A stretch of 64,000 nucleotides of DNA from Candidatus Poribacteria bacterium (GTDB lineage Bacteria; Poribacteria; WGA-4E; PCPOR2b), in assembly GCA_965208325.1 (NCBI GenBank), contig OZ242326.1, positions 2,496,001 to 2,560,000 on the forward strand. Direction: 5' to 3'. This document shows, piece by piece, positions 8,722 through 15,762 of this stretch (its first letter is position 1; each line of letters opens with the position of its first letter). A program made the position numbers and the translations under genes. The notes under the pieces are model-generated. The model was not told the origin of the DNA and searched no databases. It saw only the letters and a list, made by a program, of their open reading frames with translations.

Positions 8722-9570
8722 TTAGCTTAACCTGTAAAACTGGATAGCGTTGTCGTGGAATAACTTATTGATTTCATCCTCAGAATAGTCTTGCACCGTC
8801 CACTTCAGGGTATCAACCCACCGCGGATACTCCGTTGCTGCCGTCGAAACAGGCCAATCACTTCCGTACATCACGCGCTCAAAACTGAAGCATTCTATCA
8901 CATGCTCAATGTACGGCTTCATATCGTCCCGAGTCCAATTCTCGTGATCGGCTTCCGTTGCGAGCCCAGAAATTTTGCAGACGATATTCGGAAATTCGGA
9001 CAGTTTTTTTAATTCGCGCCGCCACGGATCGAAGATTTGCCCTTTAATATCGGGTTTTGCAATGTGATCCAATATGAACTGGATGTTCGGACACTGCTTC
9101 ACCATTTGAATGGTATTTGCCAACTGCGGGTGACGGATACAGATGTCAAAGTTGAAACCAAATTCTTCGAGAATCTGCACCCCTTTTACGAAATTCGGCT
9201 GTACGCAAAATTCAATGCTTTCGCCTTCAATGACGTGTCGGACGCCTTTGACTAATTGAATATCAGCCAGTTTTTCGAGTACTGGTCTGACTTCCTCCCC
9301 GTTATAAACAGGTGCCTCCGCTACAATTCCTTTAAGCCTAGCATCGTCTCTTGCCAGAGAAGCCACCCATTCCGCTTCCACGACTCCATCATACCCGCCG
9401 CATTGCACAAAGACCAGCGCTTCAATATTAATTTCTCCATGAGCGGCTCGATATTCCGCTAACGCATGTGGACTAGCAAATGATGGCGGAGCATCTTCAA
9501 GCCACGGATATCTCAACGCACCTTGATCCCATAAGTGAACATGGGTATCAACAATTGGTATATTTTTCAA
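8722..9570 (-). CDS. Amidohydrolase_2 family protein (L-fucono/L-rhamnono-lactonase-like)
   Basis: IVDTHVHLW, KGVRH, ILDHIAKP, CKISGLATEA, MYGSDWPV. TTG start overlaps the mobA stop. Confidence 0.88.
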   Translation of the reverse strand: MKNIPIVDTHVHLWDQGALRYPWLEDAPPSFASPHALAEYRAAHGEINIEALVFVQCGGYDGVVEAEWVASLARDDARLKGIVAEAPVYNGEEVRPVLEKLADIQLVKGVRHVIEGESIEFCVQPNFVKGVQILEEFGFNFDICIRHPQLANTIQMVKQCPNIQFILDHIAKPDIKGQIFDPWRRELKKLSEFPNIVCKISGLATEADHENWTRDDMKPYIEHVIECFSFERVMYGSDWPVSTAATEYPRWVDTLKWTVQDYSEDEINKLFHDNAIQFYRLS

Positions 9571-10208
9571 ATTTCAACCCCTTCCTGAGTAGAATGATTT
9601 ATCCGTCTCACGATGTTAAAATCTTCGGGAGTATTGATGTTAAAAAACGAATGCCCGTGCGGATCAAATTGCCGCCATTCAGAGGGCGGGACAACACGAA
9701 CGGAGATACGATTGTATAATTCATGGACGCGCAGTTCACCCTCGGCGAACATCTGCTTGATGGCAGACAAGCACTTCTTGGAATATACGGCGGACAGTGT
9801 TTGAAATATGGGGTCAGAGGGATCCGAATCCTCGACATACGGAACAACGGCATCGTCTTCGCCCAAGATTGTGGTTAAATAACACAATAGTCTCGGCTGC
9901 AGCAGCGGCATATCACAAGCAACACAGATTACGGCAGGAGTGTCTGCACGGGTGAGACCGGTATATATGCCGCCCAATGCACCCATGTTTGGAACAACAT
10001 CTGTATACATCCGCACGCCTAGATGCCCAAACTGCGATGGGGTGTTCGTAATCAGTAGGACATTAGTCGTGACCAATCTCATTTGACAAAGCGTGTGTTC
10101 AATGAGAGTGGCACAGCCAAGCCGCATTAGCGCCTTGTTCTGCCCCATTCGACGGCTGCTTCCGCCAGCGAGGATGATTCCTGTTGTGGAGTCCTTGACG
10201 GTTTGCAT
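9567..10208 (-). CDS. mobA: Molybdenum cofactor guanylyltransferase
   Basis: ILAGGSSRRMGQNKA, GALGGIYTGL, VACDMPLL, FFNINTPED. Confidence 0.92.
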   Translation of the reverse strand: MQTVKDSTTGIILAGGSSRRMGQNKALMRLGCATLIEHTLCQMRLVTTNVLLITNTPSQFGHLGVRMYTDVVPNMGALGGIYTGLTRADTPAVICVACDMPLLQPRLLCYLTTILGEDDAVVPYVEDSDPSDPIFQTLSAVYSKKCLSAIKQMFAEGELRVHELYNRISVRVVPPSEWRQFDPHGHSFFNINTPEDFNIVRRINHSTQEGVEI

Positions 10209-10356
10209 GATATTTTACCCATCATATCATTCTAGCCTAACCGCGTCAACAGAAAATCTAAAATTTCAGAAATCACCGTTGACGGATTAGAGCTATTCTG
10301 ATAGGCTGCAACTGCTTTGATTTCTGAGTTCAATCCCTCTTTGTAAAGGAAGACTT

Positions 10357-11199
10357 ATGCAGATTGGAATTTTCGCGAAGACGTTCATTCGCCCAACGCT
10401 TGAAGAAACCTTGGATGCTGTGAAGGCATACGGATTGGGTTGCGTACAATTCAACATGGTATGCGCCGGGCTGCCGTCTATGCCTGACCGCATAAAGGTT
10501 GAACACTGCGACGCCATACGCCGAGAGATGTCATCGCGGGATGTTACGATGGCAGCAGTGTCCGGTACGTTCAACATGATTCACCCCGATGTTCAGAACC
10601 GCCGCACCGGGCTGCGGCGGCTGCGTGAACTCGCATCTGTGTGCAATCGGCTTGGCACATCGGTGATTACGCTGTGCACAGGCACGCGGGATCCCGAAAA
10701 CATGTGGCGCCGCCACCCTGAAAACGATTCGCCGCAGGCGTGGAAAGACCTGATCACATCAATGAGGGAAGCGTTGCAAATTGCAGAAGAACACGGCGTC
10801 ACACTCGCTATTGAACCCGAAGTGTCGAATGTAGTGGATTCAGCGGGGAAAGGCCGCCGTCTGCTTGATGAGATGCAGTCGCCGTATTTGAAAGTGGTGA
10901 TGGATGCCGCCAACATCTTTCACACTGGCGAACTGCCGCGCATGCGCGAAATTCTTGACGAGGCGTTCGCTCTCTTAGGCGAGTATATCGTTATTGCACA
11001 TGCCAAAGACTTGAGCCGTGATGGCGAAGCGGGGGATGTAGCCGCCGGTCGAGGCGTATTGGATTACGACTATTATCTGTCCCTGCTACACAGAACCGGA
11101 TTCGACGGCCCCTTGATACTTCACGGCCTTGCGGAAGCAGAGGTTCAAGAAAGTGTGAATTTCCTTCGTGGGAAACTTCAGGGTGTAGATAAGAACTGA
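10357..11199 (+). CDS. Sugar phosphate isomerase/epimerase (AP endonuclease 2 TIM barrel)
   Basis: LAIEPE, VVMDAAN, AHAKD, GRGVLDY metal-binding pattern. Confidence 0.87.
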   Translation: MQIGIFAKTFIRPTLEETLDAVKAYGLGCVQFNMVCAGLPSMPDRIKVEHCDAIRREMSSRDVTMAAVSGTFNMIHPDVQNRRTGLRRLRELASVCNRLGTSVITLCTGTRDPENMWRRHPENDSPQAWKDLITSMREALQIAEEHGVTLAIEPEVSNVVDSAGKGRRLLDEMQSPYLKVVMDAANIFHTGELPRMREILDEAFALLGEYIVIAHAKDLSRDGEAGDVAAGRGVLDYDYYLSLLHRTGFDGPLILHGLAEAEVQESVNFLRGKLQGVDKN

Positions 11200-11232
11200 T
11201 TCTCTCTTGTTTTTTCATTTATGAATGTATTT

Positions 11233-11260
11233 GCCCCGCGGTTGGAAACCGCACCTACCG
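11233..11260 (-). repeat. GTAG-type REP palindrome (related copy 26592-26619, + strand)
   Basis: Minus strand CGGTAGGTGCGGTTTCCAACCGCGG versus CGGTAGGTGCGGTTTCCTAACCGCACCG at 26592. Both lie just downstream of a gene stop. Confidence 0.75.
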
Positions 11261-11432
11261 AAATGTGTGTAAGGAGTTTTCGGCTAGCAGAGCGATGCCG
11301 TTGAGACATCATTCGGTTAATCTAACATAAAATACGGCAATCACATCTACACATGAATCGCCCCGTCAATCGCTCTTTTTCATAGTGATTCAAGTAATAA
11401 TACGTTGAGATTTGCGACCCACCGGATTTTCC

Positions 11433-11462
11433 TTGACACACACTTCCCGGTTATGATACCCT
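11433..11462 (+). promoter_or_regulatory. Putative sigma70 promoter of the leader-hisI-trpE-trpG operon
   Basis: TTGACA (11433-11438), 18 nt, then TACCCT preceded by TG (extended -10). Confidence 0.5.
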
Positions 11463-11491
11463 TTAGCAAATAGCAGCGAAAGGCAAGGCTG

Positions 11492-11593
11492 ATGAAATTT
11501 TCGAATCTCCTCCTCCATTCCAATACGGCAACACACAACTGGCATTGGTGGCATTCAATCTGGAGTCGGAGGAGTATGCCTTTGCTGAAATAG
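11492..11593 (+). CDS. Attenuator leader peptide, His- and Trp-rich (33 aa)
   Basis: Manual translation MKFSNLLLHSNTATHNWHWWHSIWSRRSMPLLK*: 4 His and 4 Trp, core HNWHWWHSIW; AAGG upstream. Below the ORF-track length cutoff. Confidence 0.88.
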   Translation: MKFSNLLLHSNTATHNWHWWHSIWSRRSMPLLK

Positions 11594-11636
11594 AATCCGT
11601 ATTCATTTGATAGTTTTTAGCCGTAGGCATACGTCC
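11571..11636 (+). promoter_or_regulatory. Antiterminator stem of the attenuator
   Basis: GGA-GTATGCCT (11571-11581) is complementary to AGGCATAC-g-TCC (11625-11636), which overlaps the terminator 5' arm. Confidence 0.8.
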
Positions 11637-11656
11637 CGTTGTCTACGGCTTTTTTT
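11619..11656 (+). terminator. Intrinsic terminator (attenuator) upstream of hisI
   Basis: Stem AGCCGTAGGCA / TGTCTACGGCT (11 bp with one G-U), 10-nt loop, T-run to 11656; ~30 nt before the hisI start. Confidence 0.9.
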
Positions 11657-11683
11657 ATGCCAACTGTTAGGAGGAAAATCTCG

Positions 11684-12067
11684 ATGCAAATGCTTGACGA
11701 ACTCAAATTCGATTCAAACGGACTCATCCCGGCAATCATACAAGATTACGAGAACAACGACGTACTGATGATGGGTTACATGAACCGAGAAGCGGTGCGG
11801 CGAACGCTTGAATCAGGGCGCGTCACGTTCTGGAGCCGCTCCCGCCAGAAATACTGGGTAAAGGGGGAGACTTCGGGGCACACCCAAGATGTACGCTCGC
11901 TAGCTTTCGATTGCGATGCGGACACGCTTCTCATCAAGGTCGTGCAGAAAGGCGGGGCATGCCACGTAGGGTACCGCTCCTGTTTTTTCCGGGAAGTCTC
12001 CCCCAACGGCAATTCGGCACGCATCGTTGGTACAAAAGTTTTTGACCCGGGCGCAGTTTATTCGTAA
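11684..12067 (+). CDS. hisI: Phosphoribosyl-AMP cyclohydrolase
   Basis: [54 protein letters not shown]. Start after the AGGAGG RBS. Confidence 0.96.
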
Positions 12068-12145
12068 CCGTGTGGGAGCGGTTTGATGGCCGCAACCAAT
12101 GCCGACATTTGACGGGGCGCCCACAGTTAGCAAGGAGGCTTCTCA

Positions 12146-13630
12146 ATGTATTATCCGACTTTGGAATATTTTCGAGAAAAAGCGCAACACGGCAATTTGA
12201 TTCCCGTTTACAAATCCATCTTGGCGGATATGGAAACCCCTGTATCCGCATTTTACAAAATCGGCGGAGATGAATACGCCTTCCTTTTGGAAAGCGTCGA
12301 AGGCGGGGAAAATCTCGCTCGATACTCCTTCCTCGGCGCAAATCCGTCCACCCTGTTTCAGAGCAAGGGGAATCAGATTAAAATCACGGATGTGCGAACC
12401 GGCAAGATCGTCGAGTGTGAATCGAGGGACGCGCTCACTCAACTCGAAGCACTGATGACTCGCTACCAACCGGTGCAGGTCGAAGGACTGTCCCATTTCC
12501 ACGGCGGGGTTGTGGGCTACCTCAGTTATGATGTCGTGCGGTTGGTCGAAGAATTACCCGATTGCACCGAGGATGACCGGGATTTACCTGATTGCTATTT
12601 CATGACCGCCGATACACTCTTGGTCTTCGACCACGTGAACCACCGGATCAAGGTCATCGCCAACGCACATATTGATGGTGATGTTGACGCAGCGTATGCA
12701 GATGCAATCAACCGAATTGACGTGTTGATTGCGAAACTCAAGCGTCCGCTTCGCACGAATCCCGGCAAGAAAGCGCCAGAGGATAACACCCAAAAACAGA
12801 TTACATCGAATTTCACGAAAGCAGGTTACGAATCTGTCGTCCTTCGCGCGAAGGAGTACGTCGCTGCGGGGGACATCATTCAAGTCGTTCCGTCACAACG
12901 GTTCAGCCGACCGATTTCTGTCGATGCCTTTGAAATCTACCGCGCGCTGCGCACGGTCAATCCCTCGCCCTATATGTACTATCTCAAATTCGCCGGCATC
13001 CAGATTGTTGGGGCTTCGCCGGAGATGATGGTGCGTGTAGAGAACGGACGCGCAGAGACCCGCCCAATCGCGGGTACGAGACCTCGCGGACGCACCCCCG
13101 CCGAAGACGCCGCACTCGCTGAAGAGTTGCTCGCCGATCCGAAGGAACGCGCGGAACATGTGATGCTCGTTGATCTGGGGCGAAACGACCTCGGCAGAGT
13201 CTGCGAATACCACACGGTTCGTGTGAGCGAGATGATGGTAATCGAGCGCTATTCGCATGTCATGCACATCGCGTCGCACGTCGAAGGGCAATTGCGCGAG
13301 GGACAGACCGCTTTTGATGTCATCCGCGCCTGCCTCCCCGCCGGAACGCTGTCCGGAGCACCGAAGATTCGGGCGATGGAGATTATTGAGGAACTCGAGC
13401 CGACGCGGCGGGGACCCTACGGGGGAGCGGTCGGTTACTTTAGTTTCTCCGGCAGCGCAGACACGGCGATTACGATTCGTACCCTCGTCGTCGTGGATGG
13501 TGTTGCCTACATCCAGGCTGGCGCCGGCATCGTTGCGGACTCTGTACCCGAATTCGAATTCGAGGAAACGCTGAACAAGGCGCAGGCGGGATTGAGAGCC
13601 ATTGAATTTGCGGAGGCGGGACTGGAATAA
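12146..13630 (+). CDS. trpE: Anthranilate synthase component I
   Basis: ADMETPV, FLLESVEGG (Trp feedback site), NPSPYMY, GASPE, PIAGTRPRG, KERAEHVMLVDLGRND, PAGTLSGAPK. Confidence 0.96.
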   Translation: MYYPTLEYFREKAQHGNLIPVYKSILADMETPVSAFYKIGGDEYAFLLESVEGGENLARYSFLGANPSTLFQSKGNQIKITDVRTGKIVECESRDALTQLEALMTRYQPVQVEGLSHFHGGVVGYLSYDVVRLVEELPDCTEDDRDLPDCYFMTADTLLVFDHVNHRIKVIANAHIDGDVDAAYADAINRIDVLIAKLKRPLRTNPGKKAPEDNTQKQITSNFTKAGYESVVLRAKEYVAAGDIIQVVPSQRFSRPISVDAFEIYRALRTVNPSPYMYYLKFAGIQIVGASPEMMVRVENGRAETRPIAGTRPRGRTPAEDAALAEELLADPKERAEHVMLVDLGRNDLGRVCEYHTVRVSEMMVIERYSHVMHIASHVEGQLREGQTAFDVIRACLPAGTLSGAPKIRAMEIIEELEPTRRGPYGGAVGYFSFSGSADTAITIRTLVVVDGVAYIQAGAGIVADSVPEFEFEETLNKAQAGLRAIEFAEAGLE

Positions 13631-13693
13631 GCGTTTTTTAAATCGGAAAAAAGATGTGAGAAACTACAGGCATACTTAATTAAGGAAAAAACT

Positions 13694-14257
13694 ATGGTAC
13701 TCATGATTGACAACTACGACTCATTCACTTACAACCTCGTCCAATATCTCGGCGAACTAGGGGCGAATCTTGTTGTCCACCGCAACGACAAAATTTCTAT
13801 TGAACAGGTTGAAGACCTCGCACCTGAGAAAATTGTAATTTCGCCGGGCCCCTGCACGCCGCGCCAGGCAGGCATCTCCTGCGAGTTGATTCGTCGCTTT
13901 GCCGGCCGCTTGCCGCTGCTCGGCGTCTGCTTGGGGCATCAGTGCATCAGCGAAGCCTTCGGCGGCGACGTTGTGCGGGCGGAGCGGCTGATGCATGGCA
14001 AAACATCTATGATTCACCACGACGGCGAGGAAATTTTCGACGAACTGGAAAACCCGTTTGAGGCGACGCGCTACCATTCGCTCATCGTGAAAAAGGAGAC
14101 GCTGCCAGACTGTTTTAAACTCACGGCATGGACCGACCAAGACGAAATTATGGGAATCCGGCACAAGGAACATCCAATCTGGGGTGTGCAATTTCATCCG
14201 GAATCAATTCTGACACACGCCGGTAAACCGCTATTGCAAAATTTCTTGCAAATTTAA
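13694..14257 (+). CDS. trpG: Anthranilate/aminodeoxychorismate synthase component II (glutamine amidotransferase)
   Basis: [40 protein letters not shown]; may be a shared TrpG/PabA. Confidence 0.94.
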
Positions 14258-14355
14258 CATGAAGCCCCGAATGTTTCTGGATTTATCATCGTTTCTTTGG
14301 TATAGTATCATATACTTTTGTTACCTAATCTTCCATTCAGTGACGGATTATACAG

Positions 14356-15762
14356 ATGCCGGACCTTAGCAACATTGATGAAAACCTCGTTCAGAAATTA
14401 TGGAATGATCGACGCTTTTTTGACTTTGAGTTGAAGGCGACGGACGGACGTACTTTGCAAGTGCTGAAAACCGGGCAGTGGAATCATAACGAGGGGCCCG
14501 ACTTCGCTGGAGCTGAAATTCTAGTCAATGGGAAGTTGTTAACGGGTGATATTGAGATTCACGTTTCTTCATCCAATTGGTACGATCACAAGCATCATCT
14601 CGACTCAAAGTATAACCGCGCCGTTCTGCATGTTGTTTTTTGGGATGACGATATCAATCTGCGTACTCGGACTCAAAACGGCAATCGGATTCCGACGTTA
14701 GAACTGTCTCACCGGCTCGACACACCTTTGGTTGAACTAATCGACGAATACAACAATCCAAAGGCGGATCAGCTGGAATGCCGAATAACAGGCAGAAGGC
14801 TGAAGATTGAACCGCTCAAGTCGGTTTTCGATCAACTCGGACAAGAGCGGCTCATCGCACACAAAGAGGCGATGCAAGCGCTGCGCGTTTCGGTCGATTT
14901 TGAGCAGTTGCTCTACGCGGGAATCATGGATGCGCTGGGGTACAAATTAAACCGCGAATCCTTTCGGGAACTTGCGCAACGCGTTCCCATCTCGCAACTG
15001 ATGGGCAAGTCGAATGAGGAAATTCAAGCGATACTGCTCGGGGTTGCGGGCTTACTCCCCTCGCAATCTAGGTTTCCCCATCCCGGCGAAGCCGATACAC
15101 CGTTCATATCTCAGTTAGAAACACTATGGGCTGCTTCTGCGCAATACGAGAATTCCAATCAAATGTCGGGGGATGTGTGGCGGTTCGGAAACACGCGGCC
15201 GCCGAACTACCCCACTCGCCGCATCGCCGCGATGGGTATGCTGATTAATTCCCGGACGGATAGCTTGATGGCGGAATTCGTTCCCCACATCGAAGCCGCA
15301 GCCACGACTGACAAGAGTGGCTTGCTACGAATACGGCGTGAACTGTCAGCGTTATTAATGATTCCCGCCGCCGGTTACTGGTCGAGCCATTCCCATTTTG
15401 GGAAAGGAATTTCACCGGCGGGAACGGCAATGATTGGGAAACCACGGGCTTCTGACATTATCATCAACACGTTGCTGCCGCTGGCGCTTGTATGGGCGGA
15501 AGAGTCGCAGAGTTCCAGATTGTCTGACGCGGTTCAAAAACTCTACGACCGCCATCCAAAACTTCAGGACAACCGTATAACCAAAGACCTTACCGCCCAA
15601 ATCTTCACCGAACAACAACCTATCCAGAGCATCTCACCCACCGCCAAAAAGCAACAGGGAGCAATCTACCTCCACGAAAACTTCTGCAAAAGCCAACTCT
15701 GTGAACTCTGTCCAATCTTCAACAGCGGCGCGGTAGACGACAACGTCGCCCCCAATCCTTAA
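14356..15762 (+). CDS. DUF2851 family protein
   Basis: G.WN...GPDF, GDIEIH..SSNWYDHKHHLD..YN..VLHVV, RPPNYPTRRIA, C-terminal C-x4-C-x2-C. Confidence 0.82.
   Translation: MPDLSNIDENLVQKLWNDRRFFDFELKATDGRTLQVLKTGQWNHNEGPDFAGAEILVNGKLLTGDIEIHVSSSNWYDHKHHLDSKYNRAVLHVVFWDDDINLRTRTQNGNRIPTLELSHRLDTPLVELIDEYNNPKADQLECRITGRRLKIEPLKSVFDQLGQERLIAHKEAMQALRVSVDFEQLLYAGIMDALGYKLNRESFRELAQRVPISQLMGKSNEEIQAILLGVAGLLPSQSRFPHPGEADTPFISQLETLWAASAQYENSNQMSGDVWRFGNTRPPNYPTRRIAAMGMLINSRTDSLMAEFVPHIEAAATTDKSGLLRIRRELSALLMIPAAGYWSSHSHFGKGISPAGTAMIGKPRASDIIINTLLPLALVWAEESQSSRLSDAVQKLYDRHPKLQDNRITKDLTAQIFTEQQPIQSISPTAKKQQGAIYLHENFCKSQLCELCPIFNSGAVDDNVAPNP

Follow-up and report, generated by a model that had tools for sequence, protein, structure and literature searches.

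A short open reading frame (ORF) rich in His and Trp codons, followed by an intrinsic terminator and a competing antiterminator, precedes the hisI-trpE-trpG operon of an uncultured, sponge-associated Candidatus Poribacteria bacterium, and is most likely a bivalent leader of this operon, responding to tryptophan as well as histidine. The element lies in a window of 64,000 nt, the whole stretch of DNA that was analysed, and all positions given here are those of the window on the + strand. From its sequence and from modelled folds, the element is probably a classical ribosome-mediated transcription attenuator reading two amino acids, Trp and His, and what is shown here is the anatomy of the element, its conservation, the covariation of terminator and antiterminator, and the co-occurrence of leader His codons with hisI.

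The operon starts with hisI (11684-12067), which encodes a monofunctional phosphoribosyl-AMP cyclohydrolase (PRA-CH; NCBIfam NF000768, 176.7 bits with a curated cut-off of 126), followed by trpE (12146-13630; anthranilate synthase component I, TIGR00564, 601.4 bits, cut-off 517.7) and trpG (13694-14257; anthranilate/aminodeoxychorismate synthase component II, NF005799, 329 bits, cut-off 327), and no terminator-like sites were found between these three genes on the + strand. A DUF2851 gene (14356-15762) follows trpG after a gap of 98 nt, with no terminator-like site in between and a weak promoter-like site at 14283-14311. The hisI gene is the sole PRA-CH gene of the 4.7-Mb genome, and only 27 nt separate the end of the terminator U-run from its start codon, and therefore all hisI expression must pass the terminator. 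The hisG gene, two His_biosynth genes (hisA/F), trpA and trpD are dispersed on the chromosome (G000 C1: 2789020, 2804386, 2949700, 3817299 and 507861), and no comparable leader ORF was seen 5′ of hisG, hisA/F, trpB/A or trpD in this genome. The initial annotation had explained the joint presence of His and Trp codons by a link between two PRPP-consuming pathways, but the position of the only hisI copy behind a Trp-controlled terminator provides a simpler logic.

The leader ORF (11492-11593) consists of 33 codons and a TAG stop codon, and translates to MKFSNLLLHSNTATHNWHWWHSIWSRRSMPLLK, with 4 His and 4 Trp codons and counterparts in relatives. It starts with the ATG at 11492, with AAGG as ribosome-binding site 4-7 nt upstream. 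The regulatory codons are codons 15-21, reading H15-N-W-H-W-W-H21 (11534-11554), with His9 and Trp24 as additional codons, and the two amino acids match the operon products HisI, TrpE and TrpG. Searches with the leader peptide against Pfam (E up to 10) and NCBIfam (E up to 0.01) returned no families, while cmscan of positions 9000-14000 against Rfam (E up to 10) returned six weak matches, with no leader, T-box or riboswitch family among them. The best of these matches, to the osmY RNA, reached 23.7 bits with a gathering score of 46.9, and covered the terminator and the hisI ribosome-binding site (11620-11686); we take it to be a look-alike of the terminator. A genome-wide scan for other His- or Trp-rich short ORFs with a T-run left this leader as the only convincing one, with the five other candidates inspected located inside genes.

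A promoter-like pair of TTGACA (11433-11438) and TATGAT (11452-11457), separated by 13 nt, can be read upstream of the leader, and transcription would begin 5′ of 11474. The sequence TGATAT(G)CTTTA is kept at the equivalent site in relatives, and TTGACA and TATGAT(A) with a spacer of 12-13 nt were also seen 5′ of the leaders in distant genera (L074, L076). The pair at 11433-11457 was not reported by a sigma-70 scanner, and a spacer of 12-13 nt, as read from the sequence, falls short of that in a standard sigma-70 promoter.

The leader RNA contains two nested protector helices, an antiterminator and a terminator. In the outer protector helix P1, the 5′ arm (11474-11485) pairs with 11577-11587 (duplex of -14.0 kcal/mol) and is found in MFE folds; it abuts or overlaps the Shine-Dalgarno-like AAAGG/AAGG of the leader (11479-11488), and in genus g5 the equivalent arm sits 1-5 nt ahead of the AUG. 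The inner protector hairpin P2 (11510-11574) is formed by 11510-11522 and 11561-11574 (-19.1 kcal/mol), with the regulatory codons occupying its apical part. The antiterminator has region 2 (11571-11590) as its 5′ arm, with GUAUGCCU (11575-11582) as the core and GCUGAAA (11584-11590) as an extension in this genome. Its 3′ arm (11613-11636) overlaps the upper half of the terminator 5′ arm (AGGCAUAC, 11625-11632), and the core duplex of 11571-11581 with 11625-11636 has an energy of -14.9 kcal/mol. Finally, the intrinsic terminator (11619-11656) has a stem of 14 bp interrupted by one bulge (11619-11633 with 11637-11650), made up of 11 bp, a bulged U and 3 bp, followed by seven T residues at 11650-11656; the hairpin has an energy of -18.7 kcal/mol and the arm-against-arm duplex of -20.0 kcal/mol. 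The terminator was seen in all 31 leaders analysed. A simple terminator scanner gave no sites over 11100-12200, presumably because the bulged stem falls outside its rule. Folding of 11465-11660 without constraints gave P1 and P2 as nested helices together with the terminator. This fold had an energy of -56.7 kcal/mol (z = -2.04), which 9/200 shuffles equalled or bettered. The initial annotation had proposed the 33-codon ORF with its 4 His and 4 Trp codons as well as the protector, antiterminator and terminator stems; on re-reading, the ORF, its peptide and all stem coordinates proved exact, with the four duplex energies given above, and the unconstrained fold that it had suggested as a check reproduced the protector and the terminator.

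In the attenuation mechanism that we propose, a ribosome would translate the 33-codon leader after transcription has begun. When both tRNA-Trp and tRNA-His are charged, this ribosome would reach the TAG at 11591 and cover region 2 (11575-11590), upon which the terminator (11619-11650) and its U-run would form and transcription would stop 27 nt before hisI. A shortage of either charged tRNA would stall the ribosome within the H-N-W-H-W-W-H codons (11534-11554) and break P2, allowing region 2 to pair with the emerging 11613-11636, so that the terminator would be blocked and the operon transcribed. The need for His codons would follow from the position of hisI, a single-copy gene that has the terminator directly in front of it and lacks space for a separate promoter. 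Ribosome stalling, the response to His and the kinetics of the attenuator are the steps that we infer here.

Switching was modelled by folding transcripts with masks for a ribosome stalled on the regulatory codons (11537-11566) or located at the stop codon (11576-11605). Equilibrium folds of full-length leaders with ribosome masks were uninformative, since the terminator was retained every time, and transcripts ending at the terminator loop were therefore used instead. In the window transcript, 12 nt of the terminator 5′ arm were paired upstream with the stalled mask and 4 nt with the stop-codon mask. Without a ribosome, the window transcript ending at the leader stop codon forms P1 and P2; once the terminator 5′ arm is out, and before the 3′ arm has been made, P2 with an extended antiterminator (11575-11590 with 11613-11633) beats P1 with P2 by 7.8 kcal/mol, and the complete transcript folds into P1, P2 and the terminator. 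The antiterminator state is thus the more stable of the two before synthesis of the 3′ arm, and a function for the outer stem (11474-11485 with 11577-11587) is putative. When a crude masked-fold model was applied to 31 orthologs, the 'stalled' and 'at stop' states were separated in 7/31, and in 15/31 with an initiating ribosome added.

To assess the covariation of the terminator and antiterminator, 31 sequences representing 11 families were aligned with MAFFT. Families f1 and f3 vary hardly at all in the terminator, the 3′ end of the leader ORF and the core of region 2, and therefore the covariation had to come from the other families. The 16 pairs of the terminator were paired in 88.3%, with 10 pairs changed on both sides, and none of 500 shuffles of the 31 sequences reached its covariation score. 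A similar result was obtained for the 8 bp of the antiterminator, which were paired in 88.4%, with 5/8 pairs changed on both sides and a score reached by 0/500 shuffles (31 sequences, 11 families). Sliding the antiterminator arms reduced pairing to 15-24% at odd slides and to 62-64% at plus or minus 2, the latter because the arm has the character of a GU repeat. For P1 and P2 together, pairing was 80.2% over 28 sequences and fell to 35-51% on sliding, and 14 pairs had changed on both sides; this comparison is favoured by the use of a structure derived from a single member of the alignment. Duplex energies discriminated weakly between partners, as the antiterminator means were -16.3 kcal/mol for cognate and -14.1 kcal/mol for non-cognate duplexes, with 252/770 non-cognate partners at least as good as the cognate one, and the corresponding number for P1 was 215/770.

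Both the covariation and the window folds indicate that the terminator and antiterminator are mutually exclusive, and that region 2 can be masked by a ribosome at the stop codon. The attenuator architecture of the initial annotation, with a leader ORF, a terminator, an antiterminator and a protector hairpin enclosing the leader, was thereby recovered, including an antiterminator that covaries across families; the test of stem covariation which it had suggested yielded compensatory changes in the terminator and antiterminator across the 11 families, and the masked folds of the window transcript agreed with its proposed geometry, in which a stalled ribosome keeps the antiterminator and a ribosome at the stop codon removes it.

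In the loci of relatives, trpE follows hisI in 30/30, a Trp-containing leader ORF is located 5′ of hisI in 29/30, and W-H-W is present in 26/30, and this conservation excludes chance. A pattern derived from the terminator matched 38 loci in species-representative genomes, with hisI and trpE adjoining the match in all 38; 37 of these loci are labelled as Candidatus or uncultured Poribacteria and one as 'uncultured bacterium'. Scanning metagenomes for a HHWHWW coding pattern gave 117 loci, none of which had a hisI or trpE match nearby; four matches resembling short ORFs were rejected, as they lie inside other genes.

The trpE gene was located in 172/176 genomes of the phylum and upstream regions were taken for a spread of families, with a leader defined as a short Trp-containing ORF ahead of a hairpin (-10 kcal/mol or better) and a T-run. 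The survey comprised 81 trpE loci in 80 genomes, with hisI preceding trpE at 73 loci, and a leader was detected at 62 of these 73, from 18 genera. The 62 hisI-linked leaders contain on average 3.65 His per 33.5 codons, so that His makes up approximately 11% of their codons, and W-H-W is present in 54/62. The densest stretch of 9 codons contains at least one His codon in 62/62 and at least two in 55/62. The rule found no leader at the other 11 hisI-linked loci, which include g15, g20, g12, g13, g9 and L099. Upstream DNA differs in g15 (three genomes, no leader detected), and of the g20 loci, likewise with no leader detected, one adjoins the end of its contig and a mobile-looking gene lies upstream of the other. 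The automatic rule also missed the short degenerate leaders of g12, which are recognisable by eye, and L099, where the hairpin lacks a T-run. Among the 30 loci of relatives, the leader of one (L022) is interrupted within the Trp cluster and that of another (L023) is without a H/W core.

Several rearrangements were also noticed around the leader. In one genome (G023; L010 = L068 1301-1518) the whole attenuator is present twice in tandem before hisI, with ORFs at -382 and -185 and a terminator motif after each, and in another (G072, L111) a tandem array of GC-rich repeats is found 5′ of hisI where the leader would be. A 10-codon in-frame insertion splits the Trp cluster in G011 (L022/L036; HHW...LVPHCEDPENRE...WH), resulting in a leader of 42 codons compared to 32 in its closest relatives, with the terminator intact. 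REP-type palindromic repeats are located between the terminator and hisI at four loci (L007, L017, L024 and L026), lengthening the spacer from approximately 30 to 110-180 nt. One metagenome-assembled genome carries two different hisI-trpE loci (L054, g5-like, and L056, g1-like), and trpE is matched twice in another genome (G066); each of the two appears to be a mixed bin.

The leader peptide is well conserved, including its C-terminus, which would also fit an element that is not a starvation sensor, be it a functional small protein, a TnaC-like arrest peptide, or an untranslated ORF in front of a constitutive or protein-controlled terminator. We consider this very improbable, as the conserved C-terminal codons coincide with region 2 and their covariation with the terminator arm is that of an RNA rather than a peptide, while the N-terminal half of the peptide varies freely between genera, and the element always precedes trpE or hisI-trpE. 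Induction of the TnaC type occurs with excess Trp, which is the wrong sign for a biosynthetic operon, and a TnaC-like arrest peptide was rejected on this ground and with the conserved C-terminus explained by the RNA.

With attenuation by a stalled ribosome as the preferred reading, it is highly probable from the leader codons and the modelled folds that the leader senses Trp, and on the same basis sensing of His appears likely, with less confidence. The initial annotation had stated that the leader would be a plain trpL if its His codons were not conserved in orthologous leaders. Conservation was found, with CAT and CAC exchanged synonymously, and few or no His codons occur in leaders of operons without hisI. 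Among 28 sequences, the His codon at position -2 is CAT in 21, CAC in 5 and TAT in 2, and the middle His codon is CAT in 22, CAC in 4 and replaced by Tyr in 2. His is thus found at -2 in 26/28, and it is present at -1 in 20/28, again with CAT/CAC variation. The two His codons ahead of the first Trp are located in a predicted hairpin loop, and therefore no pairing explains them.

The main alternative reading concerns the central His codon. The sequence UGG-CAU yields GGCAU, a copy of the GGCAU in the terminator arm, which may pair with region 2 as a 1:2 helix and provides a reason at the RNA level for a His codon at this position. RNAalifold pairs GGCA[UC] with [GA]UGCC of region 2 in 28/28 f1/f3 sequences, and changes on one side preserve the pair in 27/28 (UG 19, UA 4, CG 4, CA 1); W-H-W is the only near-universal His position (54/62). 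The leader might then be a plain Trp attenuator, with Trp codons as the sole sensors, His codons kept for RNA pairing or as passengers, and hisI expressed from basal read-through. The leaders of families f10 and f11, which work with Trp codons alone, are in line with this, as is the leader of G027, which has no hisI upstream and carries UAU in place of CAU, where a wobble with GUGCC is still possible (hand reading, no fold). We nevertheless regard a plain Trp attenuator as rather unlikely. The 1:2 helix has only 5 bp, and the wider stretches of 19 nt and 13 nt give a duplex of -7.0 kcal/mol. Furthermore, the -2 and -1 codons lie in the predicted loop and yet encode His in most sequences, and in family f2 the sequence of region 2 differs, yet W-H-W-W and the upstream His codons persist. 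The His share of the leader codons, at about 11%, and the single-copy hisI without space for its own promoter also argue against it.

The phylum includes five homologous leaders located directly before trpE, without hisI, and these contain 0 (G042), 0 (G043), 0 (G027), 1 (G030) and 1 (G069) His codons. At the site where hisI-linked leaders read H-W-H-W-W, these five have W-R-W-W-W, W-C-W-W-W, R-W-W-Y, R-W-R-H and R-W-C-H, with Arg, Cys or Tyr at the positions of His. In G048, with hisI at a contig end, the leader reads H-R-W-H-W-W. The His codons of the leader thus appear to track the presence of hisI across the phylum, a contrast which is suggestive rather than statistical because it represents approximately two independent lineages (families f10/f11, and genus g10 in f4). 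Some hisI-linked leaders are poor in core His codons: family f2 often has only one or two, g3 reads SYSWYWW, g19 reads CWWPWW and g9 is without a H/W core, with His present only upstream of the core or scarce. Interleaving also halves the fraction of regulatory codons per amino acid. Where the modelling by Elf and Ehrenberg deals with such codons, it stresses a high regulatory fraction (PMC1183508), and interleaving would therefore be expected to cost sensitivity.

One possible history is that hisI arrived behind a Trp attenuator and that His codons were then recruited between the Trp codons, while departure of hisI from the operon, as in genus g10, would let the His codons decay to Arg, Cys and Tyr by single-base changes. 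We give an even chance to the proposal that the codons of the leader co-evolve with the genes of its operon and that the leader functions as a true OR gate across pathways. If true, the amino-acid logic of an operon could be read from its leader, and would change on short evolutionary time scales. The phylum represents a natural codon-swap series, with His codons present when hisI is in the operon and nearly absent without it, and the idea that leader codons are tuned to operon content is directly testable with simple reporters. It also gives an annotation rule for regulatory logic in the genomes of organisms that cannot be cultured.

A search of the open-access full-text literature found no His/Trp leader and no paper on attenuation in Poribacteria. 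At the time of Naville and Gautheret, according to the relevant passages, Proteobacteria and Actinobacteria were the groups with known leader peptides, to which these authors added Firmicutes (PMC2965389). The passages of Seliverstov et al. that concern attenuators in Actinobacteria describe these for Trp, Cys and branched-chain amino acids, and none for His (PMC1262725). Leader-peptide attenuation is a textbook mechanism, described on the former account for the most part in Proteobacteria and Actinobacteria, with a few Firmicutes (PMC2965389), and would here be found throughout an uncultured candidate phylum.

The closest known systems include the trp leader of E. coli and Salmonella (trpL, RF00513). 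The Poribacteria leader shares with it neighbouring Trp codons in a short ORF, a stop codon at which a terminating ribosome would mask region 2, the use of the terminator 5′ arm by the antiterminator, and an intrinsic terminator just before trpE-type genes. No match to RF00513 (Trp_leader) or RF00514 (His_leader) was obtained at E up to 10, and there is therefore no sequence relationship to trpL. Unlike trpL, the leader described here has 3-4 Trp codons interleaved with 3-4 His codons, and the first gene under its control would be a histidine gene. A further difference is the long protector hairpin, which encloses most of the leader ORF and has its outer arm at the leader ribosome-binding site. 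The his leader (hisL, RF00514) resembles the Poribacteria leader in placing His codons ahead of a his gene and in combining a terminator with an antiterminator. In E. coli, hisL contains a run of seven His codons, whereas here one to four core His codons are mixed with Trp codons, and hisI alone, rather than the whole pathway, would be controlled. Multivalent leaders are known in enterobacteria, where thrL contains Thr and Ile codons and ilvL/ivbL contain Leu, Val and Ile codons, and starvation for any of these amino acids relieves termination. The Poribacteria leader shares with thrL, ilvL and ivbL the presence of codons for more than one amino acid in a single leader, here each matched by an operon gene (hisI and trpEG). 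The amino acids of thrL and ilvL belong to one branched pathway, whereas the His and Trp pathways are unrelated and joined only by the make-up of the operon, and, in contrast to thrL and ilvL, the codon content of the Poribacteria leader appears to follow the presence of hisI in the operon.
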